DNA from: Flaccisagitta enflata
Lineage: Eukaryota
Assembly: GCA_965153355.1 (NCBI GenBank)
Contig: OZ231126.1
Location: 18,910,001-18,974,000, forward strand
Length of the DNA: 64,000 bases
Direction of reading: 5' to 3'
Both the position numbers and the translations under genes were made by a program. Under the pieces are notes generated by a model that worked only from the letters and a program-made list of their open reading frames with translations, had not been told where the DNA came from and made no database searches. Shown here piece by piece: positions 1 to 64,000 of the stretch (positions within the stretch are counted from its first letter, which is position 1; every line of letters starts with the position of its first letter).

Positions 1-1449
1 GGGTCAACCGACATATAACAATAACAGCCTATTCATAAACATAAAACAAGCCAAGTGCAAAAAAACAGTGGAGGACATTTGGGCAGGGGCTATACTAAAA
101 GGAATGATCATACCTGAAACACACTCATGATTGTCTTTATAAGCAATAGGCTAATGACCTGACCACACTGTGTTGCCTAGCTGTGATAGGTAGGAAAAAA
201 TGCCACAGTATAGCGACCTATTTTGGGGTGTTATATACATCTAAGTGGATGTCACCATACATGAAACAAAAAATTCTGTTGGGATTTTTTCTAGAAAACG
301 CCGTAAAAAGCCGTAAAATGCCGTAAAAATGACATTTTTTCAGTTATATGAACTCAAAATCAGTGAGTCTGGTCAGAAAATGGTCTAACAATGTTGATTT
401 AGCACTGAGAGATATTTTTTCAAAAATTCAAGTCAAGCACACATCATTTTGTAGTATTCAAATGCCGTAAAAAGTCATAAAATGCTGTAAAAATGACGTT
501 TTTCACTGTATAGTGTATTTTGTAGGCTCAAAAACATTGAGTTTAGTCAGAATATGGTCAAGCAATGTTTGTTTGGCACTGAGACACAAACCTTCAAAAA
601 TTCAAGTCAAGCAGCCATCATTCAGTATCATTTTTTGCCGTAAATTGCCGTTAAAATTGCATTTTTAAGCATTTCTTGGGTGTCACTCCCTCGTAGCCCG
701 AAATTCACTTGAAAATTGACAGAAAACAATCTTTGGGCCAAAGAGAAATATATATCAATATTTTTTAGCCTGAGGTGGTAATTTAGTTTACTATTATCCC
801 GTAAAAGGCGGTAAAGTGCCGTAAAGATAACGTTTTAGGCAGCTTTTTTAGATATTTTTTTGCTGTAATAACTGCTCCACTTGTCATAAATTATCAAAAC
901 AATGATGATTTAACACAGAGTTACATTCAAGCACATATTCAAGTCATTTTGGTGTCATTCAGTGTCACTTTCTGCCGTAAAATTGCCATTAAAACAGCAT
1001 TTTTGAGTGTTTTTTTAGGTCTTACTCTTTCAAATAGCACCTCATTTGCACAATAACTGCCTGAAAATGGATATGGGGGCTTGGGACATACTTATTTTAA
1101 AGTTTAAAGATAAAGTGTCATGATTAAGTCATGTTTGAAAGCAGAAAAGAGCTGTAAAATTCTGCGAAAATCGCAATTATGGTAGTTTTTAGGCTAATAT
1201 TTGCAATCATTAGCCTAATTCTATCAGGTTTACCTAGTTATGTTCTGGGTATCTATGTGTGCATGTGTACATGTGTGAACATGTGTGTGGGCACCTTTCC
1301 ATAAAGTAATATATCATACTGTTGCACCATCTTGCTGACAAAATAAAGAAAAGAATGTATTATGTAATAAGCTTTCAAGGTAAAAAAACATATACAAACA
1401 CACACATACACACACAAATATACATACACATGCACACACATATAGACAC

Positions 1450-1756
1450 TAGGGTGGTCACTAAATAGGGTCAAATTTCAAAAAATGATATACTCTAGTT
1501 TTTTGCATAAATGCACCAAAAAAGAAGGTTTTCCCACAAGTAGAGGTCTGAATTTGAAGATTAAATCATGGCGGCAAAACTATAGGCTTCCTATGGCAAT
1601 AAAAAAATCCCCATAGCAACCCTATAGTTTTGCCGACAAGGTTTCTTGTTTGATTTCACACCCCAGCTTGTGAGAAATCCTTCTTTTATTGGACATTTGT
1701 GCAAAGGGCTCAAGTATATCAATATATGAACTTTGACCCAATTCCGGACCACCCTA
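1450..1756. mobile_element. hAT-type MITE nested in the foldback spacer
   Basis: TIRs TAGGGTGGTC...GACCACCCTA and a perfect 8-bp TSD ATAGACAC (1442-1449, 1757-1764). Confidence 0.85.
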
Positions 1757-1776
1757 ATAGACACACACATACATAC

Positions 1777-1822
<46 letters not shown>

Positions 1823-2825
1823 TCACACACACATACACATGCACAAGCACATGTACACATGCAAAAAACATAATCAAGTTAACTATATGGTTGTAAATAA
1901 TACCCCAAGAACAGCCAAAATGCATGGTATAGTGTGGTATTCTAAGCATTTTACTGCTATTCCATCATGACACTTTACTTTAAAACTTTGAAAAAAGTAT
2001 GTCACAAGCCCCACTACTCATTTTCGGGCAGTTGTTCAGTGAATGTTGTGCCATTTGAAAAAGTAAGACCCAAAAAACACTCAAAAAGGCTGTTTTAACA
2101 GCAATTTTACAGCATAAAGTGACACTGAATTACAACAAATTGACTTGAATTTGTGCTTGAATGTAACTCTGTATCAAATCATTATTGTTTTGATGATTTA
2201 TGAAAAGTGTAGCTGTGTTAAAGCAAAAAATACCTAAAAAATCTGCCTAAAATGCTTTTTTATGGCACTTTATGGCTTTTTTACGGCACTTTATGGCCTT
2301 TTATGGGATAATAGTAGACCAAATTACCACCTAAGGCTAAAAAATATTGATATATATTTCTCTTTGGCCTGAAGATTGTTTTCTGCCAATTTTTAAGTGA
2401 AGTTCGGGATACGAGAGAGTGACACCCAAGAAATGCTTAAAAATGCAATTTTAACGGCAATTTATAGCAAAAAATGATACTGAATTGAAGGCTGCTTGAC
2501 ATGAATTTTTGAAGGTGTGTATTTTAGTGCCAAATAAACATTACTTGACCATTTTCTGACTAAACTCAATGTTTTTGAGTCTATGAAATACACTAAACAG
2601 TGAAAAAGCCATTTTTACGGCATTTTATGACTTTTTACGGCATTCAAATACTACAAAATGATGTCTGCTCGACTTGAATTTTTGCAGGAATGTCTCTTAG
2701 TGCTAAATCAACATTGTTTGACCATTTTCTGACCAGACTCACTGATTTTGAGTGCATATAACTAAAAAAAATGCCATTTTTACGGCATTTTACGGCTTTT
2801 TACAGCGTAAATCCCAACGGAATTT

Positions 2826-2984
2826 TTAGTTGCGGACACGCAACTCTATAAGAGGCTTCGTCCGTCCGTCCGTCGGTCCGTCCGTCGGTCCGTCCGTGGT
2901 GATCGAGTTGGATAGTGTGAAAACGTGCATTTCTGCCCCTGCCCACCCGTCCGCAACTGGTATTGGCCGTGTATCCGGCCTTGT
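2826..2984 (+). mobile_element. HINE/DINE-1-like element (family A) in the right foldback arm
   Basis: 5' hairpin AGTTGCGGACACGCAACT, (GTCC/GGTC)n tract, 3' subterminal repeat GTCCGCAACT, stem-loop GGCCGTGTATCCGGCC, then TTGTT. Absent from the homologous site in the left arm. Confidence 0.8.
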
Positions 2985-3667
2985 TTGTTTCATGTATGGT
3001 GCCACCCGTATAGATGTATATAACACCCCAGAATAGGTCGCTATACTGTGGCATTTTTTCCTACCTATCACAGCTAGGCAACACGGTGACCAATCAACAA
3101 ACTGACAAATGGTCCAACCAAAAGACCAATGTATACAATCACATGCACACATTTAGATACAATTCACGCGTACAAGTGAACGTACCCTGCGACTCGTGCA
3201 ATAAAGGTACTTTCAACCTGTTTGGAAATTCCCTTTTTCCACATTCGTCCAGAATGCAATGTTCAGCCTCGTGTGAGTGACCTCAGAGCGAAAATGACAA
3301 CTGAGACAAATTTCAGCGCTGGTCTTATCTACTCTCTCTCCCCTATCGTGTTCTATGAGTTGGCCAATTTCATCCTTGTCATCCTCGTCTTGCGGCCACA
3401 CCCTAGAGTTCCGGTTCCGTTCCCCTCCCCCCCTTTCTCTCCGTCTATTTCTCGAGTTTTGGTGTTAATACCATTTGCACGTCGTTTTATCCCAAACGCC
3501 TACCCGGCTACCCCCGCCCAAAGGCCCCTCTTCCATCTGTGTCTCAACTATTCTAAGAATTCTATTCTTAGAATCTAACGATCTCTCTTCGATCTCTGTT
3601 CTATGCTTTTTCCCCCTCTCTCTTTTTGTCTTTGTCTGTTTGTTCTTCTGTCTTTCCATCCCTCCTC

Positions 3668-4466: not shown

Positions 4467-4954
<488 letters not shown>

Positions 4955-16148: not shown

Positions 16149-16149
<1 letters not shown>

Positions 16150-18401
16150 CAAAGAAGCAGACACTTTCTCAAAACATCGGAAAAGTAACACAACGCCATC
16201 AACAGGCCATCGAACGCAACCAACAACTCGAATATGAATTTGGCCGTCAGATTTCGCGTGAAATAAAAGATGACGCCGAAAATCCACTGCAGACTCTGAA
16301 ACACGATCAACTTCATCAAGAATTTGATGAGATAGAAAAACGCGTCTTTGTCCATGGGCTTGTCCCATAATTTGACAAAGTGGAACAGACTGAAACCCAG
16401 ACTGCCGAGGCAGAGAGTGACCGAGATCGTCGCCGGCAGTGCGATGAAATACAACGTCCCTATTTTCGTAGAGAGCATGCAAAATTCGTCGTCTCCGTAT
16501 TGGATCAGGGAATTGTCGTGAAACTTTCCAACGCACCACAAAGTGAAAACCAAAACGGCGGAACCGATCCAAATGACCAAAGACAGAGCCCTTTCCCATC
16601 GACTGGCGCCATTTTGTCGATTCTCCACCGTCAACGCGGCCATGTTGTGATTCAACTGCCTCATAAGACGCGCCACTTGGATCCCGAACCAAGCCATGTG
16701 ACCAAAAGTCGTCAACATGGAGTAATGAATGGCGATGGCGAAAACTTCGCACGCGATCGAGAAGCGTCTGAACGCGGTGGCGCCGCAAAGAGACGCGAAA
16801 AACAGCGACTTGCCGACGGCGATTCCCAACTGACGGCGTTTGGCCTTGGAAGCGGTTCCCTCGACGCAAATAATATGACATATAATCAAGATGAGAAAGC
16901 CGATCGAAGTGACGCTGCCGGTCAAGGAAACCACCAATAAACCAAAAAGTCGTTTTTCTTCCGACTCTTCTTCTTTTTCTTCTTCTTCTTCTTTTTCTTC
17001 TTCAATTGTCGTTGCTGTTGGTCTTTCAGCATCTTCATCCTTTGATGGACCCCATATTTCATTGATAAAACCCGAAATCTCGATAAAGTTACGATCGGCT
17101 AAAAACCTAAAGTCTGACATGATTAGACGCAAAACCGCGTTCATGTCGTGAGTGACGAAAGGCGATAGAATCTGGCTGCAATAACGGCAGAAACAATTTG
17201 ATCGGATCGTTTCTAAACGGTTATCGTGCATTATCACGTAATTTATAGCCGGTCGGTCTTTGATTTCATCATCGTCATCGTCGTAAGTAACATTATCGTC
17301 GTCATCATTGTCATTGTCATTTTCCGATTCGAACAAACATAGTTTCCCAAGTCTAGTGCGTCCTTGTAGTCCGTCGGAAATTGGGTAAAAAATGGAATTT
17401 TTGTCGCAAAAAAAGTTTTCCAACATATTCACGTCGTAAATGGGACCATTTTTGAATTTTTCCATATCGTGCCCACAGTTGTAAGTTCCCCTCTGCTGAA
17501 GAGGCCAAAAATGCTCTTTCGCGGCCTGTTCAAAGTTGCAGAGCGCGCAGTAGACATTTCGATAAGCGCGACCGTGGATTTCAACGGGCATAAGCAGCGC
17601 CAATTTACCGCTTTTTCCCGTCTTTGCCGAAAGACAGTTACGTCTAATCTCATCATCCCCGTCAAATTCATTCCGGCAGGACGTTATCAGATAAAAACCA
17701 ATCCCTTTAAACTGCGATGTGTTACGATATCTGTGAGTAGAGACGCATTCGATAACTGCACCATGTAAGACATTATCAATTCGATCATCAACAACATGTG
17801 TGAGGGGATTTTCTACTTGATCACCATTTCTATCACTGTTCCCGCTATCATTCCGATTTCCATCACTGTTCCCACTATCATTTCGATGTCCACGCCCAAT
17901 TTCAAGACCATGTCCATACCCATTTCCAAGTCCATGTCCAAGCCCATTATCAAGTCCATGTCCAGAACCATTTCCAAGTCCGTGTCCAAAACCATTTCCA
18001 CGTTCATTTAAATCAAAATCATTCTCCTGTCTCAGCTCTTCAAAATCATCGCAGCAGTCGTCAAAACGCACACACAGATCATCACATTGGCAGGTGACGT
18101 CACTTCGACGAAAGTCATAGAGACGCTGTTGTGGTTCCTCTTCACCCCCTCGTCTCTCGGCGCATGAAAAGCTAGTCCTCTGAAACGGGCACAGAGAAGC
18201 GGCTTGCCATTTCTTCTGACCTCCTTTCCAATCTTTCGTGATATCTTTGACTTGCTCCAACATGGCCAAATGCTTGCCTTTCAATCCGCCTACAGCAATG
18301 ACGTCCCCGATGTTCATTTCAGATATGGCCAATTTCATTCGTTTTATGCCCATTTTCTCGCTTATTTTCATCCGAAGCGACCTCGGCGTTGAAATCGTCA
18401 T
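16149..18401 (-). CDS. Somatomedin-B-domain 7TM receptor (family B/adhesion/Methuselah-like GPCR), 750-aa intronless ORF; true N-terminus uncertain
   Basis: SMB motif CQCDDLCVRFDDCCDDF, a Cys-rich ectodomain (YRNVYCALCN) and seven hydrophobic helices. The conserved TM3 Cys (CEVFAIAIHY) and ECL2 Cys (YGDDEFCML) are present. No signal peptide at the ORF start. Confidence 0.85.
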
Positions 18402-18509
18402 TATCGGGGTGAGGGGCCTCCATTTTGATTTGTTGAAGCTCGACTGAACTTGTCCAAAAAATTGAAACTTTGTCGGAAAATACTTGTCCCGGACAGGTAA
18501 GCCTTAAGT

Positions 18510-19185: not shown

Positions 19186-22108
19186 TCATTCACATCTCCA
19201 ACCCCAAAGAAGAGGGGTATACGAAATATAGGGGTAAAATTCTATTGCAAAAGATTATTTTGTCATGCTCAGTTATGCAACATAGTTCAGTTGAGAAGAC
19301 TTTGAGAACATACCGATTTCGTCGTCATACGAAAATGTGGAAAGAGGTTTCATTTCCAGTTCCGTGAATAAGGTTGGAATACTTTCCAGATCCCAAATAA
19401 CCGATTGAGGCACTTTGTGTTTGAAAAACCATGGAAATTTTACCCTGAAGCATTCGTAAGAGAGATCAAGTGGTTTTTGGGCAGCGGCCCTGAAGGAGCC
19501 GATGACTTATTCTTTCACACAAAAGGGAAATTTCTCCTCCACCTCCGTCCGTCCACCCCCTTCGAGACTCACATTCCAGCCTCCAGGCTTTGATCCTAAC
19601 CTAAATGCCGCAAGGCTTAAATCCCTGCCTTGAGGCCTAAATCCCAGCCTTGAGGCTCTAACTAATCCCAACCTTGAAGCTCCTATCGCAGCACTGAGGC
19701 CTAGATAATAGTCTGGAGTCCTAAATCCCAGTCTTTGGGCACAAATCCCAACTATGGGGCTCCAACCCTGACCATGTGGGCAAGATAGTCCTTCAGCGAA
19801 GTATGGGATGTTCATGAACGAGAAATGAACGCATGTTTATAAACAGTGTAATGAGAATGTTCATGAATTTTATAGAATAGAATATATAGAATACATAGAA
19901 TGGGTATTTGTTGAACAATTTTGTTTATCAAGGGTCAAAAAGATTTTCCCATGAACAAGCAACAAAACTCTTGCATGAACAGCTAAAGATTTATCAGATT
20001 ATGCCATTTTTTGCCCAAAAACCATACATCAAGTAGGTTTTTTTTATTTGTTCATGAAGAGCTTGTTGAAAATTGTTGAACATATGAAAATGGTGTGTGG
20101 GCAACACTTTTCTTTAAACAATGTGCATGGAAGGGGCTCAAAATCTAATTTTTTTCTTAGTTTATTTTTGACAAGATTTTTTTAAAGATTTTTTGTTGAA
20201 CCCTGACAGACTGGAAGCCCGTATCCGCCATCTTGTTTTTTTGCTGTTTTACCCGACCTATGTTATCGCCCTCTATCTGATTCCCTTTTATTTCCACAGG
20301 TGGCGCTACTAGTCCTCTTCCTCTTCCCCAACATTTGCCCCCTACAATCCCTTACCTTTTGACCATGTCAATTCTCATTCAGTCTTGTTGCTGCCCTGCT
20401 ACAAATAACATCTCAAGTCTTCATCCTGATTTTTATGCCATTTTTCCTGCCCAGATCAGTGGAGATATTTTGCCTAAAAGAGGCCCAAAGAGAAAGTTAC
20501 AAAACTGCCTCAAGAGTTTCAAACTACAAACATTACACAGCTTTTGCTTGGGAGGTTGATGTTTGTGGGTGACCTTCCCGCATTTTCGTCATTTGGGTTG
20601 CAGTGGACGTCCCTGCCCATTGGCAGACCTTGGAGAGAGCCGTATCCTCAGAGACGGAGACAGCATTACTGCCCTGGACATTTTCACCGTTGCCTTGCCC
20701 TGTTTTGGGTTTGTTCGTCTGTTTGTCAGGTTTCTATATTTTTTATTAATATTTTGATATTTTCAAATATGATAATATTATCTTTATGTTTTTCTAAATA
20801 GTTTTTTTTTTCGACGTGTTGATTTTTTATCATAAAAATTTTCCAAGGATGAATTTTAGTATCTCATAAGTTGTCTTTTTTTTGATAGATTTTTTTTCTT
20901 ATGAAAAATTGTTATCATAAAATTCTTAACTTGAAAATGATTTTTTTTTCCCGACAAATTCTTTATGATTAAATTGGCCTGTATATTGTTACATATTCAT
21001 AAAATCAAAGGAAATGGGGAAGGAAATAAATGGGTAGAGAAACCAAAAGGGGGTAAAGGAATTAAAGGTCATGCAACTATATACACTCTTGTAATTAAAC
21101 TTTTCTCCATACCATAGTGAAATTCTGTTTGATCAATTTGTATATTGTCTCGCAAACAGGCTTATGAAGCATTAAACACAGGAAGAATCATCGTTCACAA
21201 ACATATGAAAAAAAAAAACAAAAAAATTATTGTTGATGGACAGCAAAATAAAGCCATTTCATGAATTGTTTCTCGTGAAAAACGTTTTATGTGTTCACGA
21301 ATAGTCAAAAAGACATTGCTCATGAATAGGAATTCATTCCCCGTTCATAAACGCCCCTAATTGTAAATTTGCTGACGGACTACCTGGCGAAAGCCTCTTT
21401 TGGGCCGCTGCCCCTCTCGCTATCTCATCCCTAACAACATCATTTGTGATTAAATATATCTTGCATAAAAGGTAAGCTGGTAAATGATTTTCAGAAAGAA
21501 TTCAATTCTTCTCCATGCGTAATTCGAAAAAATTGTGTAAAATAAATATGTAAGGTCTATGTTGCCAGACGATTTGTATTGAAAAAAATTGATTTTCGAA
21601 TTCTTTTGATGTTTAAAGTCTCATCTTTCATTACATCTTATGAAAAGTTATATCTTTTACCTTGAAGAGGTTAAACTGCCGTTATCATCCCCTTCCAGCA
21701 CACCACCTATTCGAAACAGAAATGAAAGAAATGACTATAAAACAAGCTTAGTCGACAAACGCACATCATTAGAAGTGGCAAACATGATTCCAACGGTTGT
21801 AAAACATGAACAAGTGCAATGGACCAAACAAGAAAAAAAAAGCTATACATCAACTTGTAAACAAGTGATTTTTACTGCTGATATTGTCAATATTGATAAT
21901 GTCAATTGGCTTAGAAGCAATGGACCATTGCCCAATGTGTATTGTGCAATATACTCGTTTACGTACCAACAAATTCATAATCGAAGCTTTTTCCCACGTC
22001 TATTTTATTGATGAAATGTTCTTTGCATCTTGTCCGGCATTTGGCCTCCGAAACAGAAGAGATGAAGAAAATAAACGCCAAACATAACAATGGCAACATG
22101 GTTGCCAT
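19186..22108 (-). CDS. Small secreted protein of unknown family, 124 aa (exons 22108-21967, 21706-21661, 19444-19314, 19241-19186)
   Basis: Signal-peptide-like start MATMLPLLCLAFIFFISSVSEA. Three GT-AG introns with matching phases (1, 2, 1) give 375 nt of open frame ending LLWGWRCE*. A TATA box and Inr lie upstream. Confidence 0.7.
19475..21411 (+). mobile_element. HINE-like family B copy split by a ~1.6-kb TIR element (19784-21384), inside intron 2 of the secreted-protein gene
   Basis: Outer ends TTTTTGGGCAGCGGCCC...TTTTGGGCCGCTGCCC. Inner imperfect TIRs GATAGTCCTTCAGC / GCTGACGGACTACC. No clean TSD seen for the inner element. Confidence 0.6.
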
Positions 22109-25912: not shown

Positions 25913-26554
25913 CAAAGAAAGTGGAAAAGCTGACATGCCAATTTTAAGAATTATTTTCAAAGGTCGAAAAAGAGGATTAACCCTTGATAGTCATAGCGTT
26001 TTGTAATTTATGTTCAGTTTTTATTTGAATCATCCTCTAACCCTGTTTTGAATACTAATTTTGCTCTTCTTCTGAAGTAAAAACATTGTTATCTAATTAC
26101 GCAAGACACTCTTGCGAAGCTGCGCCCCGAAAATGTCATGAATTAGTTGTATACTCTATAAATCTACCATCTATTCTTTAAAAAAAACCAACGCTTATTT
26201 TCTCTGTGTTTCTCTGATTCTTTGATTCTTTGATCACTTTCTTGTTTCATAGTTGTAAGTTTTTTTTGTTTCTGCCTTACCTTTTTTCTTGTTTTTACTT
26301 TTTGTTTTCTTTTTGGTTTCTGAGTTACTCCCAATTTGTTTTGTCTGTTTATGAGGCTGCTTTTGTATCTGTTCCTTTAAATTTATCCCATCTTCTATCT
26401 GCCTTTCTGTGTTCCTCTTTATCTATCCATTCGACGAGAGACATTCAACCTTTGGCAATCTGTCTGTCTGTCACTATCTGCCTCTGTCTATTTCTCTGTC
26501 TCTTTCTATCTGTCTGTCTGTCTGTCTGACTCTGTCTCTGTCTGTCTGTCTCTC

Positions 26555-26636
<82 letters not shown>

Positions 26637-27012
26637 AATTTCTTTGTTTTCATACTGAGGATGTCGTGTTATTTTTTCAGATGAGGGAAATGTCCAACGG
26701 CTTTAAAGAGGAGAAAGAATGAAACCTAAATTTTCCCCGTAAGAATTAAACAAGGCCCATCGAGAAAAAGGTCATTGCAATGGTAACAAAAACTATCGCG
26801 TGCGCGTGCACGTGTACGTGCTTACGACATGGTAGTGAACTAATGATACGAGTGTAGACTGGCGTGATGATCGGACAGATCGACCAACAGACGGACTGGG
26901 CATTTGATAGACGGATGACCAATTGACCATACGTCGATTCTCAAAAGGGATGTTATCACGTAGAGTAGACTGACATAGAAGGGTAAACAGGCATGCGCTT
27001 CTATTGAATAGT

Positions 27013-34760: not shown

Positions 34761-34934
<174 letters not shown>

Positions 34935-43196: not shown

Positions 43197-43456
43197 TTGA
43201 AGCAGTGAACTCATCAAAGAGGTTGATTAGTAATTGACCTGAGAGATTCCTTCATGGCAAATCGAATTCAGTTCACTGTCAAGTTCAAAATCTCGTTTCG
43301 TACTTACGTTATATGTCTACAGAAAGGAAACTTTACAATTACCAAAATGAGTAAAATTCCTATTTCAAGCAAAAGTCAAAACATCATTTTGTCTGTAGTT
43401 GCCTCTACCCGTGTATCTGTCTGTTCGTCTACCTAACCGTTTTGTCTGTCTGTCTG

Positions 43457-43500
<44 letters not shown>

Positions 43501-43666
43501 CCCTCCCATTACGCACCTTTTCCTTATCAACTATTTTTTCCTTCGAAGATAGAAGACCCGGGTGTCCGGCTTCATAGCGGCGTGTACCTTCTTTCGACTC
43601 TTGTATCACAATTTACATTATTATCTTTGTTTTCGCCGTATGCCGCACCTCTCTCTCTCGCTCTCG

Positions 43667-43778
<112 letters not shown>

Positions 43779-55155: not shown

Positions 55156-57931
55156 ATGGATGACGAAATGGAAACCTACAAGTTGTGGCGTATACGAAAA
55201 ACCATCATGCAGCTCTGTCATGACCGAGGGTACCTCGTCACTCAGGATGAGCTCGATCAAACTCTTGATCAATTTAAGGTGCCATTTATCTTTCATACTG
55301 CTTTGATATATCTCCGGTCGCTTGGTCGCTTGCACGCGCTTTCATATCCCGCTTTGACTGTCGGCCCTGTTGTCTCTGCTTTGGTCAGTAGGTCAATCCA
55401 AATAAATCGCATTTTCAATCATTTTAAATCTTATTCCAGTCTTTTCCAGTCTTTTCCAGTCTTTTCCAGTCTATCCCAGTCTTTCCACGTCTTTCCACGT
55501 CTTTCCACGTCTTTCCCCGTCTTTCCCCGTCTTTCTGTAGAACATGAACAAACCACCCAAGAAGGGCAGGGGCATCGGGTCAATGGAGAAAAGCAAAAGA
55601 CCTACCCCGAATCCAGGAACACAGAAGATCTCCAAGAAGGCCTCTGGGCCAAGGCATGCACTGATGACCACAAAAGCGATGGATGGATGGATAACCCACA
55701 AAATATATCCCCCAAGGCGAAAGCTGATATGTCTCTGTAGTATTTACCCCTCAGGGTACAAATGATCCACTTGTTTATGCAGTTCTTATATTCTTATCAT
55801 TAGGCCCCTTTCGGGCAGTATGTATCTCCATCAAATCTGGGCATAAAATGGCACAAAACAGGAGAAAAACCCATGAGATGTTATCACTTTCAGGGCAGAG
55901 AGAAGACTGAATATAAACGAAACATTTGTAAAAGTAAGCAATAAAATAGGCTTTTGTCAGACTACAGACGTGACTAGAAGCGCCCCCTAGCGGAGCCAAA
56001 ACGAGGCTAAAAAGTAAAGACTCGTTGATAAAGTCACCTCTGATAGAGCTCCATACCTTTATATTGAAATTCATCCAAGCGGTAATTCTGTCACTTTTTC
56101 TCACTTGCGCAGCAAACAAACCCTTCTCTGAATAATGTTTACCACCCATGATGTGGATAGCAATAAATGTTTCAAAATTAAAATTCGTCTCATTCCACTC
56201 CGACTATTTGGTCAAACAAAACGTTAGACATATGTCAAATTCGTGTGATCTCATTCTTAATTTCAAAGAGGTGGGTGGGTGAAGTGCAAATGCCGGAAGA
56301 AGACCAACCATACCCTGGGCAGGACCCCTCAATTCATAAGTTGCCCTGATTGGTGGGTCCTGCTCCCCGCTGAAGGTCTTTAGGTGGATGCAATGTAAAA
56401 GTGGGTACAATACTTATTACAGACTGTTTCTCACTTTGCTTTACCAACCAAACATTCGCTGGTCCATCCGTCCTTTAGTTAAGTCATGATGAACGGAAAT
56501 GTTAGTCAAGTAATAGTTAGAGATAGAGATAGGATAGGACTTATGGACCTTGTCGTCTTGAAACAAACTTTTTTCTTACGTGTCATTGCCAAGGGATGTC
56601 GGCATTGATGGAAATCCGCGTGTGCAAATTGTTTTTGTGAATGGACTGAAATGCGGCTGTCTTCGCTTTTTCTCCGTCGAGACAGAAGCCTGGATGCTGT
56701 CGTAACTCCCACGCGGTGTCACGTGACGTCGTCGCGTCGAGAAGGATTGTCGTAGATGAACAGTGAAATACACAGGTTTTAGACCGGACGCAGATGAATG
56801 TAGGAAGAGGGCATCGGCCCTAGATCTAGAGATCCGTGCGCGATCCTTGGACGATTGACCCCAAATTGCTTGGGGATAGAAGAATAAGGCCCTTTGCAAA
56901 CAGGATATTGGCGTATGGATGAGGGCCGCGTATGAAAGATGGAACATATTCGCTACTGGTTCTCGTCTAAGTGGTGGATGAATGGTCAACTTTTCAATTG
57001 TGTGGGTTGCCTTTGACTTACAGAACTGTTTTATCGGCGGTCGGCCTCTGGCTATTCACCCCTGTTCAACCGCTGACAGTAGCCACTTTATCGTTAAAGC
57101 CAATCTCTAATTTTTTTCGTATTTTTCCCCAAATTTGATCCGGATCAAAAAGAAGTCTCAATATACAATTTTTTTTTAAATTTTTTTGGCTAAAGTCAGT
57201 AACCCTGACAGGTGAGAACTGCGCTACTATCCGACCGCCATGACAAACAAATGGACTTATATTTTTCAACAACATGCGTTGACGTGCTGACATTCGACGT
57301 TACTGTGTGCCATACCTTAATGTAATTTGTGTGGGATTGAGAAATACTGACCGATACTTTTCCTCCCCTTGCCACCAAAGATGCGTCCTCGCGTCTTGAA
57401 ACTTTTTTTTTTGTTTTGTTTATGGAAGAAATCGAATTTGTGTTCTTCGTTCGACGACGACACATAGTGAGGTTGTCGTTTCAGGTGGGGATTGAACTGG
57501 CGTGGTAGTAATGTAGTATAGTAGCCCGTTGGCAGCAACAATTTGTGTGATCGCTTTCTGGTCATTACTGTCGATGTGGATTTGTAACTTGATACTTTGT
57601 TTCGTTTTGTGCCATAAATTTACTGCTTAACTTTTTGCCCATTTATCTCAAATGTGCGTGTAAAATCCCGCTTGATATCTCGGCACCAATGCCGATTGAA
57701 CGATGATTATAACTGGATTGTACTCGTTCATACTGGAAGTCAATATTTACACTTTTACCGAATATACCTCTATTGGATCGCTATGTTTTCCGCCCGTACT
57801 TTCGCGTTAGTCGAACTACAGTGGGTCCCATATATTTTTTCTTTTAGACTCTAAAACTGATGTTGAAATTTAAATTAAAACGTAATTTACAAACGATCGC
57901 TTTCTATTTACAGAACCACAGTAGTGGAATT

Positions 57932-57972
<41 letters not shown>

Positions 57973-60900
57973 AACAACGCGGCAAAGCTGAGGCTGCATA
58001 CGACTGTCGATGTACTGCCGCGGTTGCATCCTTTAAGGACGTGTTCGAGTCGGAGTTGGTATTGGCCTTGGCAATGATGAGAGACTCGATATGCTGAAAA
58101 CCGGCCTTCATGTCGCTGTGAAGTCGTGTAACACGGTCGTCGAGAAGAGCTTGACCAATTTGTAATTCTTCGATGTCGCGACGATTGGCTTCAATTTCGG
58201 GATCGATGTCATAGAAAGCGAGCGAGGACGACGCAGCAATCGGCGCCGTGGAGGCGGCAGCAGCGGCGAGATGAGGTTCTCCATTGGTGACTAACTGTCT
58301 TCCTTTTTCTTCAAATTCAGACGCTTCGAAGTCGACCGCAAATTGGAAGGCTTCGTCGATGTTAATTTTATCGCGTTTGCAGTGGCGACGAAGCTTCTTT
58401 TGTAATTTGACGTTCTCTAAACCTCCGATGAAGCGTTCCACGAGTTGACGCTGATATTCGGTGCTGACATCTTTTAGTTTGGGTTGATAGCGATTGACGC
58501 GTCGTTCAAGCTCGCTTTTGTAAGCTATGAGCGTACGGTTTTCCCTTTTAAAGCTACTGGGGTTAGAAAGGAAGAGCTGCTTTTCTTCCTCGTTTACAAA
58601 AAGCTTCGCTAACTCTTCCTCGAGGTCGTCCCAGTCATCCTTGATATCGTCGCTCAAACTCTGGTAGGCTGACATCGTCGCTCCTGGCTCAAGTTTGCTG
58701 CCAATGAACTTACAACAGGCCTCATCAAGTTCGTCAGCGTCATCGTCCCCATGAGTCAGACCGTGGGCTGCTCTCACATTCTCCCTGAAGTAGTCTCTAA
58801 ATGTTTCCCACACTTGACCGATGCAAAACGTCTTACAGTATATGGCTCTGACTGTTGGTCTCGGCGGCGTTGACGGCGCTGCCTGTGCGTCTGTCAAAAC
58901 TGTCAGTCGGGCTAAAATGTCTGCGAGACTGTCCGGCATTTTGAGAAGGAAGAAAAAAAAACTTGATCAATATATTCTGGCGTTAAAATTTTCGATTTTG
59001 AACTTTTACTTTTTGATTTTTGGGACCCAAGCTGCACTTAACGCTGTCGACGAACACGAATAGTAAGAAGGAACGGAAAAACTACTTCGCTGTTGCGACC
59101 CAATATAAGCATAGGTAAAATACTCGTAGTTTAAAATGGCAAATATACACTACTCTGAAGTGTACTGTACAACTTTACAGTGTTGAATAGACTTCAACGC
59201 GAGATGCGATGAGGCTGATGCCAATAAAGAACAGAGAGGAATTTCGGAAATGATGATCGAAGAAGATAAGAATGGATGATTACAGATGATTAGAAATGGT
59301 GATGAAGTATGATTACAGATGAAATAATGATGACGACTTACTGCCCTGTGCTCAGATGTGGAGTAAAATAAATGGACGCTCTCGCCTTTTTACGAACTCG
59401 GAGAATCAACTTTTTCTTCCTCAAGTGGAATCTGAATTCTGACTCGCATATGGATAAATGAAAACAAACGACGCTTCAATGTGACCTTTCTGAGATGAGC
59501 CTACGTCTCGGTGGGCGGTACCTGACACCTATGTGTCTTGCTTCCTAGAGGTTTAAACCGCCCCTATGCATCATAATCTTAGAGCGGGTTTTGGGGCTGC
59601 TTCCCGGACCTAATCCCGACGAAAGCTCCTTTGCTCAGCTTGCGCTGGCCCCACGACTACGGCTGCTCTCACCGCAAAACTGAAACTTAGAAGGTCGATG
59701 AACTAATGGCAGATAAACTGAAGAAAGGTATTCCTTGACTCGGTTGCGGGATTTTGGCCTAGATACGCGCGAAAAAGTGCAGATTGACTTTTTTCCCGGG
59801 CTTGAGGCACCAGGTGTAGAACATGAACAAACCACCCAAGAAGGGCAGGGGCATCGGGTCAATGGAGAAAAGCAAAAGACCTACCCCGAATCCAGGAACA
59901 CAGAAGATCTCCAAGAAGGCCTCTGGGCCAAGGCATGCACTGATGACCACAAAAGCGATGGATGGATGGATAACCCACAAAATATATCCCCCAAGGCGAA
60001 AGCTGATATGTCTCTGTAGTATTTACCCCTCAGGGTACAAATGATCCACTTGTTTATGCAGTTCTTATATTCTTATCATTAGGCCCCTTTCGGGCAGTAT
60101 GTATCTCCATCAAATCTGGGCATAAAATGGCACAAAACAGGAGAAAAACCCATGAGATGTTATCACTTTCAGGGCAGAGAGAAGACTGAATATAAACGAA
60201 ACATTTGTAAAAGTAAGCAATAAAATAGGCTTTTGTCAGACTACAGACGTGACTAGAAGCGCCCCCTAGCGGAGCCAAAACGAGGCTAAAAATGATACAC
60301 GGTCGAGGCTAAACAAAATAGCAACAGAAAAATGGCGCGGGCGTGGATGCTCATTGGGTCAGGGTTCAACATTTCCCCAGTCTTTCCCCAGTCTTTCCCC
60401 AGTCTTTCCCCAGTCTTTCCCCAGTCTTTCCCCAGTCTTTCCCCAGTCTTTCCCCATTCTATCCCCATTCTATCCCCAGTCTTTCCCCAGTCTTTCCCCA
60501 GTCTTTCCCCAGTCTTTCCCCAGTCTTTCCCCAGTCTTTCCCCAGTCTTTCCCCAGTCTTTCCCCAGTCTTTCCCCAGTCTTTCCCCAGTCTTTCCCCAG
60601 TCTTTCCCCAGTCTTTCCCCAGTCTTTCCCCAGTCTTTCCCCAGTCTTTCCCCAGTCTTTCCCCAGTCTTTCCCCAGTCTTTCCCCAGTTGACAATGACG
60701 CCAAGAAAAGTGTAAGCAGAAATGGTTACTGCTAGATATTTGACCCCCCTCCTATCGATATTTTCACCACGTCTGTACAACTCACGTACATTTACAGGCG
60801 CAGTTCGGTGACAAGCCGTCGGAGCGACGCCCGTCTCGGAACGATCTCATCATTTTGGTGGCCCACAATGACGATCCGACGGACCAGATGTTCATCTTTT

Positions 60901-63199
60901 TCCCCGAGGAACCAAAGGTATCGAGTTCACATCTTAAGCGAGTGGGGCCAACTGAGTGCGCCTTGTGGCTCATCAGTGCAGTCGTCACCCTCGACCGGGT
61001 TAGATGGATGGACACAAGTCTGATGTCGTATAGGGACGGGTGGGTCTGTCAAAACTTAAGTCTTTTTCTCGTAAAACAGAAAAAAGATATTTAGCCCGAT
61101 TTCGACCTGGGGTAGATTGAAATGGGTAACTCATTTTACCTTATACAGTACTTTCCGAGCAAACCCTGCTAAAACTGGAGGATTAATTTTTGTTACTTTA
61201 ATTTCAATTCCCAAGCTTATTTTTTGTATCTAACTTAATTAAAAAATACTTAATTCCTTGAACATATTTGGCTGTGAAAAAAAATAACTCGTGAAATCAA
61301 AGTGCATGAAGACATCAGAATTGAGTGTTCTAACCCAGACCATTGGATTTGGCAGAAAATTTTACCTATCCTAGACTACAAGAACAGCTCAGTCAGACAA
61401 CTATTTAAGATTTTATGGCCATTTAAAGTTTTTAAGGACAATTGTCCTAAATTATTTTGAGACAATTGTCCTTAAAAATTTGAAATGGCTATAAAATCTG
61501 AAATAATTATCTGACTTGAGCTGTTCTTGTAGTCTAAGATAGGTAAAATTTTCTGCCGAATGATGTCTTCATGCACTATGATTTCACGAGTTATTTTTTT
61601 TGACAGCCAAATATATTCAAGGAATTAAGTATCTTTTAATTAAGTTAGATACAAAAAATTTAGTTTGGGAAATGAAATTAAAGTAACAAAAATTAATCCT
61701 CCAGTTTTAGCCGGGTTTGCTCGGAAGGTACCGTCACACGGGGCTAATCGGGACACTTTTTGGAAATACTTCTCTGTATCTTTGGTGTGCCCAGAGTTAC
61801 ATATCTGCAACTTACCCTCTCAGTTACCATTGATGAAGGGCTTTTTGCACACCACTAACCAAAATCCAAAATTAACCCCTTGGGGGAGTTTTAATTACAG
61901 AAAGGTGCTGTCCCTATTAGCCCCGTAGTGGGGCTAATAGGGACAGATATTCTCCTTTAGTTATACATCGCACAAAGGTCACATAATTGATGACTTTTTT
62001 ATGGAATGCTGTTAATTGAGTCTATTTAGGGACAATAGTACCAAAATTGCAATAATAATCATATCGAATTCAGATTTTTCAGTATTTGTTTATTTTGTCC
62101 CTATTAGCCCCAAAAACACAAAAAAAGCGGGGCTAATAGGGACAGAACATATAAATATTGAAAATTTCTAAACCCGGTCTGACTATTAATGTAATTCTGG
62201 TACTATTGTCCTTAAATAGACTCTTTCAACAGTATTGCATGAAAAATTATTGATCATATGACCCTTAGCATAGCTTAACATAGTGTCCCGATTAGCCCCG
62301 TGTTTTTCAAAAAAATTGATTATTTACATAATTTTAGTTTGTAAACAAACTAGTTCTTTCAAAAAATCCTCATGCATGGACCTCAGAGTTACTAACTTCT
62401 TTAAGTTGAAGATACCAAGAGATCACACTGATTATTTCTTCCAGTGATGAGTCAGAGCGGCAATTTTTAGGCTATGTCAATTTTTGATTTTTTCCATATT
62501 GTTTGCATTTCAAGTTTAAAGCGATTTAAAACGGTTATAAAACAACATAGACTGCTGTATGTCACCTTGAATTAACTAAATATTGGACAAATGATGATAG
62601 AAACAAAAAAAAGTTGACCGGGTTTAAATTATCACATTGAGAACCATTTTTTAGATTGCTGTCCCGATTAGCCCCGTGTGACGGTACTGTACGTACACCT
62701 CCAATTCATGATAACAAAATTTAAAAAAGAAAGATCAAATTGTAGAACTAGGAAGAAGATAAATAAAAAACGACTTGCGAGACTCATTTCCAATTGACTT
62801 TTTATTTAGGTTGGCATTAAAACCATCAAGGCGTATTGTCAGCGTATGCAAGAGGAGAACATCACCCGCGCGATTATCATCGTTCAAAACGGCATGACTC
62901 CATCGGCCAAGCAGTCCCTCACCGACATGCAACCCAAGTATTTGCTCGAACAGTTTCTAGAGGCGGAACTGCTGGTCAACATCACGGAACACGAATTGGT
63001 GCCGGAGCACGTGGTGCTCACCGCCGACGAAAAGACCGAACTGTTGTCCCGCTACAAACTCAAAGATGTTCAACTGCCCAAGATCCAGATGGGTGACCCG
63101 GTAGCGCGTTATTTGGGACTGAAAAGAGGTCAGGTTGTCAAAATCGTTAGACCCAGCGAAACGGCCGGGAGGTACGTCTCGTATCGTCTCGTTTGTTGA
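55156..63199 (+). CDS. POLR2E: DNA-directed RNA polymerases I, II and III subunit RPABC1 (RPB5), 210 aa (exons 55156-55278, 60798-60917, 62810-63199)
   Basis: [28 protein letters not shown]...[27 protein letters not shown]...[21 protein letters not shown] matches RPB5. Two phase-0 GT-AG introns give 633 nt, the canonical 210-aa length. Confidence 0.97.
57971..58939 (-). CDS. gag: Retrotransposon Gag (capsid) protein, 322 aa
   Basis: Ty3/gypsy capsid-like pattern (WETFRDYF...AYQSL...[12 protein letters not shown]...LVERFIGGL...IDEAFQFA), placed downstream of the PBS between the LTRs. Confidence 0.85.
59795..59812 (-). promoter_or_regulatory. Primer-binding site TGGTGCCTCAAGCCCGGG
   Basis: Starts 2 nt after the LTR end with TGG, complementary to tRNA CCA. 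It resembles the tRNA-Phe-type PBS TGGTGCCGAAACCCGGG, but the tRNA identity is unconfirmed. Confidence 0.75.
60372..60689. repeat. 11-bp minisatellite (CCCCAGTCTTT)n; its other half is at ~55435-55535
   Basis: Tandem array on both sides of the LTR element. Confidence 0.95.
61146..62689. mobile_element. TA-flanked MITE (Tc1/mariner/pogo-like) whose left TIR is split by a 578-bp palindromic MITE (61151-61728)
   Basis: Outer: TA-CAGTA[insert]CCGTCACACGGGGCTAATCGGGACA...TGTCCCGATTAGCCCCGTGTGACGGTACTG-TA. Inner: TA-CTTTCCGAGCAAACC...GGTTTGCTCGGAAGG-TA. Confidence 0.85.
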
Positions 63200-63527
63200 T
63201 TGATAGTTTATGGCTGTGTAGACGTCGATGTTCCAATCTGTTCATTCTTGTTACTGATTTTTCAATATTGTAGTAGTTCGTGAACAGTCTAGCGATGTAT
63301 GTTTTGTTTTGGAAACATACAGGGATGTTTTGTTTTCGAGTTTCGTTCCATTGAGATTCCTCACGTTGCTGTTGATATACAAAGGCTTTTCAGATCTGGA
63401 AGAGCCCTTTCTATTCTCTCAATTTTTTGTTCTTTTTGCCGTGTTTACAAGAAGCTTTGGTCATAGACTTAGTGTATATTCGAGCGAGAAAAAAAGACGA
63501 ACCTAGAAGAAGAAACTAACTGTAACA

Positions 63528-64000
63528 ATGCGTTTCCGCTTTTGCGGGGACTTGGATTGTCCCGATTGGGTCCTCGCCGAGATTCAGACTCTTTCTAAAT
63601 TGACCTCCGTGAAATTCCGACTTTTGTGTTCGCAAGTGACCAAATCTATCGTCGATACCTCCGCCAGCGCCGACGTCGACTCGTCCTCGTTGGACGTCGC
63701 CAAACTGGAGAAGCTCTGCGCCGACGCCAAATTCGAATGGAACGACGTCAAAGCCGCCGTCGCGGCGCTTCATTTCATCGTCACCAACGCCGCTAAATAC
63801 GGCGTCACTGTCGAGGAACTTTCCGACGAAATTCAGCAGTTGGGCTTGCCAAAAGAGCACGCGACTGGTTTAGGCAAAGTCTACTCCGATCACTCGTCCG
63901 CGGTTCAAAGCCGGCTGAAAGAGAAAAGCCTCAAGCTCAATTCTTTGGAGAAAGTCGACTGGCGAGTGGATTACGTGTTGGGATCGAGCGTCGAACCGGA
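63528..64000 (+). CDS. COMMD4: COMM domain-containing protein 4 (5' part, runs off the window)
   Basis: [37 protein letters not shown]...QQLGLPKEH...VDWRVDYVL matches the COMMD4 N-terminus. The frame is open and intronless to the window end. Confidence 0.95.

Follow-up and report, generated by a model that had tools for sequence, protein, structure and literature searches.

Long terminal repeat (LTR) retroelements that lack pol and rely on proteins made by others are a kind already known, from the TR-GAG elements of plants, the RLG_Quinta and RLG_Cereba elements of wheat centromeres, and ETn/MusD. The subject here is a candidate of this kind in an animal. It is a retroelement on the minus strand of a 64,000-nucleotide (nt) stretch of Flaccisagitta enflata DNA (GenBank assembly GCA_965153355.1, contig OZ231126.1, positions 18,910,001 to 18,974,000; hereafter the window), which lies within an intron of the polymerase gene RPB5 and encodes a capsid-type protein, Gag, and nothing else recognizable. 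The original prediction, made from the sequence of the window, had described gag-only elements as belonging mainly to plants, and within the open-access literature TR-GAG and Quinta/Cereba agree with that statement.

TR-GAG elements (Chaparro et al. 2015, PMC4350172) are, in the available part of their description, built much as the element here is. They have LTRs, a primer binding site (PBS), a target-site duplication (TSD), and a single Gag-like open reading frame (ORF). Aspartic protease, reverse transcriptase (RT), RNase H, and integrase (IN) are absent, and mobilization in trans is presumed. The same portion of the source defines the group by a total length of at most 4 kb, at least two copies of the same structure, and the presence of LTR, PBS, and polypurine tract (PPT); its members are plant elements shorter than 4 kb with the PPT beside the 3' LTR, and the Gag of TR-GAG1 carries a zinc finger. 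In contrast, the element in the window belongs to an animal, measures 4.8 kb with a noncoding tail of 1.96 kb, and has neither a zinc knuckle nor a PPT abutting the repeat.

For RLG_Quinta/RLG_Cereba, the accessible sections of the published account (PMC11302176) give the same mechanism as that proposed here, though these elements are of a plant centromeric chromovirus lineage and Quinta has an extra domain of unknown function. Animal LTR elements that use proteins in trans include ETn/MusD, VL30/MLV (murine leukemia virus), IAP 1-delta-1, and MaLR (PMC6466679). Mammalian nonautonomous endogenous retroviruses are, according to the available portion of that source, often more active than their partners and often intronic. 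As described there, coding capacity is small or absent in ETn, VL30, and MaLR, and IAP 1-delta-1 encodes a gag-pol fusion, whereas the element here encodes an intact, conserved, capsid-only Gag. The LTR elements without coding sequence found in mosquitoes (PMC3286476) share with it an invertebrate host, a PBS, a TSD, internal tandem repeats, and the want of an identifiable master copy; in the accessible text they have no ORF of any kind, while the element here retains gag.

How should the element in the window be placed among these? On balance, it is probably a young copy, with a defect at the 3' end, of an LTR family that has gag only and depends on Pol from elsewhere. Internally, such a family would comprise a long leader, one gag of the capsid type, and ~1.7 to 1.9 kb of noncoding sequence.

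A capsid gene followed by noncoding sequence

As judged from a predicted structure, Gag is a real capsid (CA) protein with the two-lobe fold of retroviruses and retrotransposons. The AlphaFold2 model, computed with 19 aligned relatives, has a mean predicted local distance difference test score of 73.7 and consists of two lobes (residues ~30-116 and ~117-219) joined by a linker of low confidence to a long helix (247-297). When VIA-align was used to compare the model with 48,161 representative chains of the Protein Data Bank (PDB), the best 30 of the 50 rows listed were all retroviral or retrotransposon capsid domains. The top ones by Z score were the C-terminal domain of MOAP1 (9.4, with a root mean square deviation of 2.9 and 98 residues aligned), dArc1 (8.9), Copia (8.7), and MLV (8.5), each of which is only middling when taken individually. 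Gag also matches the Pfam family Retrotrans_gag (PF03732; E 2.2e-5, 25.1 bits against a cutoff of 24.1). The identification therefore relies on the uniformity of the structure list together with the Pfam match, not on single Z values. Foldseek returned no PDB match for Gag at E <= 1e-3, and its top rows were the same capsid families. The ESM Atlas supplied look-alike leads in PNMA and Retrotrans_gag clusters (0.90-0.91).

The two-lobe, all-helical CA fold is shared with Arc, PNMA2/MOAP1, PEG10, Copia, and gammaretroviral CA, although sequence identity to the solved capsids is only 6 to 17%. Gag differs from these in having no nucleocapsid zinc knuckle (no CCHC motif is present) and in the ~50-residue C-terminal helix that follows CA. 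The protein is acidic, with an isoelectric point of 5.1. The fold is common to Ty3-derived, Copia, and retroviral CA alike, and the evidence on lineage comes from Gag alone.

Who are the relatives of this protein? An initial search found 38 at E <= 1e-3; ENA assemblies are the source of every one, and a precomputed Pfam domain is recorded for none of them. Not one of 7,998 longer candidates gave a score. A profile search of 1.84 billion representatives, clustered at the 50% identity level, retrieved 245 at E <= 1e-3, including 159 at E <= 1e-10. The best 150 of the 245 all have 550 amino acids or fewer and are stand-alone proteins. When Pfam was run on 38 of these representatives, Retrotrans_gag was detected in 6 (in 3 of them above the cutoff) and no other family appeared. 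Across 19 aligned sequences, 28 columns are invariant and mark a conserved core of the family. Scans for Gag in viral and metagenome contigs yielded 8 and 225 pattern matches, respectively, none of them confirmed. The window holds no second gag; the three tblastn matches outside the gene all stem from the low-complexity end of one relative (P0092).

The relatives fall into short forms of ~320 to 330 residues and long forms of 440 to 550 residues. The latter carry a Q/P-rich tail of 150 to 220 residues with a conserved aromatic end (...W..HL.YE..P.GY....G.YSYYP..FQ), as in P0004, P0007 to P0009, P0013, and P0020. The longest contigs on record are 7 to 9 kb for long forms and at most 2.3 kb for short ones. 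In a quick, midpoint-rooted tree of 65 rows, each represented by its first 340 residues, the window Gag groups with P0001 to P0003 (~58 to 76% identical to it) in a clade with a Shimodaira-Hasegawa-like approximate likelihood ratio support of 99, sister to the long form P0004. All four members of this short clade terminate within a few residues of one another, so the gag stop is an ancestral one and not the product of truncation by the (CT)n tract behind it. Tail-less short forms occupy at least three separate places on the same tree. As for the (CT)18 itself, (AG)n/(CT)n runs are very frequent in the window (e.g., 4560-4870, 26540-26640, 34810-34930, and 43450-43775), which makes it a common type of sequence in this genome.

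Gag appears to be translated. The leader contains 4 ATG triplets against an expected 14.1 +/- 3.5, a count as low being reached in 2 of 2,000 shuffles, and its opposite strand contains 25. No such depletion is seen in the 3' region (25 ATG against 32.7 expected; 163 of 2,000 shuffles as low). An ATG-poor leader of this type looks like the signature of ribosomes scanning to the gag AUG.

What follows gag is noncoding. Over the 1,957 bp from the gag stop to the 3' repeat (57970-56014), the longest open frame on the sense strand has 159 codons and no homologue. The interval holds 31 stop-to-stop ORFs of at least 40 amino acids on its two strands, and the 25 of them that were scanned gave no match to protease (PR), RT, RNase H, or IN. 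Nor did positions 55536-58100 match the tail of any of 55 long-form Gags (best E 0.17). Rfam reported no ribozyme or RNA family, only a subthreshold snoU54 (24.1 bits against 35). Three weak domain rows in the 3' region, for ComGG, a TetR domain, and zf-CCHC_4 (14 bits against 27), were dismissed as noise. These comparisons support the view that the 3' region holds no detectable decayed pol.

Most of the structure described in the original prediction is borne out by these results. An intact gag, a leader of about 850 bp (875 nt by measurement), a PBS-like site just beyond the 5' LTR, (CT)n directly after the gag stop, and some 1.9 kb without a long ORF or pol motif were all recovered. The opposing possibility that it had named, a 3' region made of decayed pol, found no echo in ORFs, homologues, or traces of Gag tails. 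The features are listed in Table 1.

Table 1. Positions of the retroelement, its parts, and the surrounding host features in the window
Feature	Position	Strand	Details
LTR retroelement	60371 to 55536	-	4,836 bp, 44% G+C
5' LTR	60371-59815	-	557 bp, TGTTGAAC...GTTCTACA; termini inverted at 7 of 8 positions
5' LTR head a	60371-60293	-	first 79 bp; no counterpart at 3' LTR
PBS-like sequence	59812-59795	-	TGGTGCCTCAAGCCCGGG, 18 nt, TGG...; 2 nt past 5' LTR
Leader	59814-58940	-	875 nt
Tandem repeat inside leader	59247-59315		23-bp unit
gag ORF	58939-57971	-	322 amino acids + TAA, intact
(CT)18 microsatellite	57970-57935	-	directly past gag TAA
Noncoding 3' region	57934-56285	-	multicopy
Low-copy segment	56014-56284	-	stands where PPT and LTR head are expected
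Head b	56093-56014	-	80 bp; starts with TG at 56093
3' LTR body	55536-56013	-	478 bp, ends ...GTTCTACA; 100% identical to 59815-60292
TSD, left copy	55532-55535		TTTC on + strand
TSD, right copy	60372-60375		TTTC on + strand (GAAA on - strand)
Host minisatellite, left flank	55439-55535		10-bp unit, 9.7 copies, 93% matches
Host minisatellite, right flank	60372-60689		11-bp unit, 28.9 copies, 98% matches
RPB5 exon 1	55156-55278	+
RPB5 intron 1	55279-60797	+	5,519 bp; contains the retroelement
RPB5 exon 2	60798-60917	+
RPB5 last exon	62810-63199	+	Rpb5 C-terminal domain
Diverged solo LTR of a related family	20194-20738	+	545 bp, ends ...GGTTTCTATA

Unequal repeats inside RPB5

The LTR segments of the element had been described as apparently identical. 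This holds without a single substitution over the shared body, but the first 79 bp of the 5' LTR (head a) have no counterpart at the other end. The TG...CA termini with their inverted repeat are present at the 5' LTR, and the 3' LTR is without the TGTTGAAC start. In its place stands a low-copy segment, whose 80 bp next to the repeat (head b) score -16 in alignment with head a; shuffled sequences score -15.0 +/- 4.6, and 312 of 500 score as high. Nothing else in the window, head a included, resembles head b or the low-copy segment. There is no purine tract adjoining the 478-bp repeat at 56013, where the sequence is not rich in purines. The nearest purine run, GAGAAAAAG, is found 80 nt upstream of the repeat (56102-56094), and the TG that comes right after it, at 56093, stands at the expected start of a repeat matched in length (558 bp) to the 5' LTR.

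Which of the two heads is the genuine one? The solo LTR elsewhere in the window is instructive here. It matches 60053-60371 at 64% identity over 335 columns (E 8e-20) and begins with the same 14-mer as the 5' LTR, TGTTGAACCCTGAC. When both strands of the window were searched for TGTTGAACCC, only two sites were found, namely, the starts of these two LTRs. In contigs from the same organism (described below), the bin containing head a (60234-60371) has a summed depth at least equal to that of the LTR body. Because the solo LTR starts alike and the bin holding head a is no shallower than the LTR body, head a is the authentic LTR end. The solo LTR has no PBS or gag beside it; it sits between runs of T, leaving its TSD ambiguous between TTTT and TTTTT.

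The low-copy segment behaves quite differently. Its bin at 56022-56183 has summed depths of 187 and 120, versus 600 to 3,000 in the neighboring bins. A 397-nt contig of the DNA run X2 matches 56010-56324 at ~95% and then continues with 83 letters that have no place on the element, and a joint in a contig of the run X1 connects 56091 to 56267. The 3' LTR is either truncated or has had its head swapped. In retroviral reverse transcription, both U3 regions (the unique 3' parts of the LTRs) are copied from one template. Unequal heads are therefore not the outcome of one normal cycle, and they imply either rearrangement or conversion after integration or recombination between complementary DNAs (cDNAs) before it. 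Split repeats of the DIRS/Ngaro type, considered as another source of unequal heads, were rejected in view of the TSD, the TG...CA ends, and the lack of a tyrosine recombinase. A general lesson is that "100% identical LTR segments" can conceal a defective LTR.

With no differences in 478 bp of LTR, and with a neutral rate that was assumed, not measured, at 1-5 x 10^-9 per site per year, the upper bound (95%) on the age of the insertion is ~0.6 to 3 million years. The call of a young element encoding Gag and nothing else recognizable has held up. ARAGORN found no tRNA gene in the window. Matches to the 18-mer of the PBS at five loci in metagenome contigs were set aside as chance, the contigs having 53 to 60% GC and the likeness being limited to the pattern and at most 13 neighboring bases.

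The insertion itself appears clean. Both flanks of the element belong to one minisatellite, and for that reason a 4-bp TSD taken alone is weak evidence, arising by phase about 1 time in 10. Removal of the element and one TTTC restores the phase of the minisatellite, however, and the TSD call, which had also been made in the original prediction, agrees with the terminal inverted repeat of the 5' LTR. The minisatellite halves on the two sides are unlike, and the right one seems to have been separately expanded or homogenized.

The element had further been placed inside an essential polymerase gene. It does lie within RPB5, only not in coding sequence: it occupies intron 1 in antisense orientation. 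Three ORF pieces on the + strand match the N- and C-terminal domains of Rpb5 (E 7e-15, 1e-8, and 8e-35), and the exon borders at 55278/55279, 60797/60798, 60917/60918, and 62809/62810 follow the GT/AG rule. Without the element and one TSD copy, intron 1 is 679 bp long. The sense strand of the element, LTRs included (55536-60371), is devoid of AATAAA and ATTAAA, while the sense strand of RPB5 across the same interval has 5 and 2 of these, respectively. An antisense position within an intron is the usual tolerated place, and for annotation purposes, this is an ordinary insertion. The element should be spliced out together with intron 1.

Other features of the region are recorded for completeness. 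Intron 2 of RPB5 contains a near-perfect palindrome of ~590 bp (61145-61734) made of nested inverted repeats with arms of 45 to 99 nt that are 87 to 96% complementary; it looks like a foldback or miniature inverted-repeat transposable element-like element. In the same intron, a motif of 20 to 28 nt, TGTCCCGATTAGCCCCGTGT, and its complement occur in both orientations with a spacing of ~190 bp (61728-62687). Downstream of RPB5 is an ORF with a COMMD HN domain (E 1.5e-33; 63507-63998, + strand). At 16149-18503 (- strand) lies an open frame of 784 codons that includes a somatomedin-B domain, and an immunoglobulin V-set domain is also among the ORFs of the window; domains of these three kinds mark the genome as an animal one.

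Copies of the element and competing explanations

Is the element part of a family? Two DNA runs labeled with the name of the same organism, X1 and X2, and one metagenome, X3, bear on this question. Fractions of 0.59 and 0.39 of the sampled words of the element were found in the two same-organism runs, versus 0.07 to 0.13 in several marine metagenomes. At a placement threshold of at least 88% identity, 711 contig pieces from X1 and 908 from X2 lie on the element. Those from X1 comprise 177 at 99% identity or above, 188 at 95 to 99%, 259 at 90 to 95%, and 87 below 90%. All 30 bins of the element are covered in X1 and in X2, and 28 of 30 are covered in X3. Among RNA data sets, none was listed as containing the element, and ~6% of the one RNA run from the same study, too small a part to serve as a test, yielded no matching read. 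The summed depth of the 3' region (~600 to 3,000) is similar to that of gag (~270 to 3,300), summed contig depth not being the same as copy number, and the contigs of the 3' region include many variants with small indels. Every part of the element, the noncoding tail not excepted, is repeated DNA in which both old and young variants occur.

A gag-only, Pol-dependent family would work as follows. The 5' LTR would drive transcription, and Gag would be translated by scanning ribosomes. The RNA would then be packaged and reverse transcribed, and the cDNA would be integrated, by Pol acting in trans, its supplier presumably being a related autonomous element that recognizes the same LTR ends and PBS. 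In the copy described here, unrelated low-copy sequence would have taken the place of the PPT and of the first 79 bp of the 3' LTR, after integration or through rare recombination before it. RNA and Gag can probably still be made from this copy. Since the 3' LTR templates the U3 of daughters, these would lack the U3 attachment end, and the copy is probably unable to template integration-competent progeny.

Several observations weigh against this account. No listed contig spans the junction of gag with the 3' region, the contigs breaking at (CT)n, and equal abundance of the two would be seen as well with full-length relatives bearing pol between them. A contig from X3 departs from the element at 57874, 97 nt past the gag stop, with 255 unmatched letters. 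Across the LTR and the leader's first ~400 nt, the contigs sum to 2 to 6 times the depth reached over gag, which implies that internal regions of other types share these LTRs. A pol-bearing partner was not encountered: no RT or IN was detected in the 17 ORFs scanned out of 42 of at least 150 amino acids in the window. One rearrangement, that of the 3' LTR head, is demonstrated, and more may have been lost after insertion; the loss of pol could, in principle, share the history of that rearrangement. Finally, the length of 4.8 kb exceeds that given for TR-GAG elements (PMC4350172).

Part of this evidence is just what would be seen if the element were a one-off deletion derivative of an autonomous Ty3/gypsy-like element, having lost pol after insertion and never having been mobilized as a gag-only unit, perhaps with a few near-identical kin. 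We regard that as possible, though doubtful. The replacement of the 3' LTR head and PPT by low-copy sequence marks this copy as rearranged, the LTR and proximal leader exceed gag in summed depth, and one relative diverges soon after the gag stop, all in its favor. Yet a simple deletion leaves nothing behind, and here 1.65 kb of multicopy noncoding sequence, with no remnant of pol in it, separates gag from the damaged end. The lack of any substitution over 478 bp of LTR leaves little time for two independent rearrangements, and the stop right behind Gag is ancestral in the short clade. Could the assembler have made the unequal heads, or the join of gag to the 3' region, by linking different repeat copies? 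In line with such a chimera, the family is present in many copies, only the above fractions of sampled words occur in the two same-organism runs, and no listed contig spans the element from end to end. X1 contigs match exactly inside the low-copy segment (56143-56284, with no other letters), however, an X2 contig joins a 95% variant of that segment to the shared 3' region, and the TSD and minisatellite phase fit one clean insertion, all of which makes an assembly chimera highly improbable.

A different sort of explanation is that Gag is kept for its effect on other elements or on the host, either as a dominant-negative or competing capsid or in an early stage of domestication like that of Arc and PNMA. 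Dominant-negative or competing roles of capsids are known from Ty1 p22/Drt2, Fv1, and enJS56A1. In the structure comparisons, the folds nearest to that of Gag are those of domesticated CA (MOAP1/PNMA and Arc) and of Drt2, a restriction factor derived from Ty1. The family is, moreover, large and stand-alone (among the best 150 of its 245 representatives), with a conserved core, and tail-less forms occur in at least three places in the tree. All the same, this explanation seems improbable, as flanking LTRs, a TSD, and multicopy variants at 88 to 100% identity characterize a mobile element rather than a fixed host gene. For the same reasons (LTRs, TSD, and hundreds of contig pieces at 88 to 100%), a domesticated single-copy gag without LTRs is not matched. 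A gag-only, Pol-dependent family with a 3'-defective young copy thus stays the reading we prefer.

What a capsid-only family would mean

A broader speculation goes beyond this locus. Marine animals might carry a widespread capsid-only LTR lineage that parasitizes other retroelements, has repeatedly shed pol and the Q/P-rich tail, and has been selected for a shell of its own that outcompetes or poisons its Pol partner. The Gag of such a lineage, devoid of nucleocapsid, would end in a coiled-coil helix. We hold this to be unlikely; if true, the lineage would be the animal counterpart of TR-GAG and Quinta/Cereba, with a side effect like that of a restriction factor. A gag-only LTR family in animals was not found in the open-access literature, itself weak evidence. 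The Gag family as a whole is an uncharted capsid lineage. Should the family of the element described here prove to spread as a gag-only unit, animals would offer an example of a nonautonomous LTR element with its capsid gene kept intact, and this would permit a test of why Gag is kept, whether for cis preference, for competition with the partner, or for interference.

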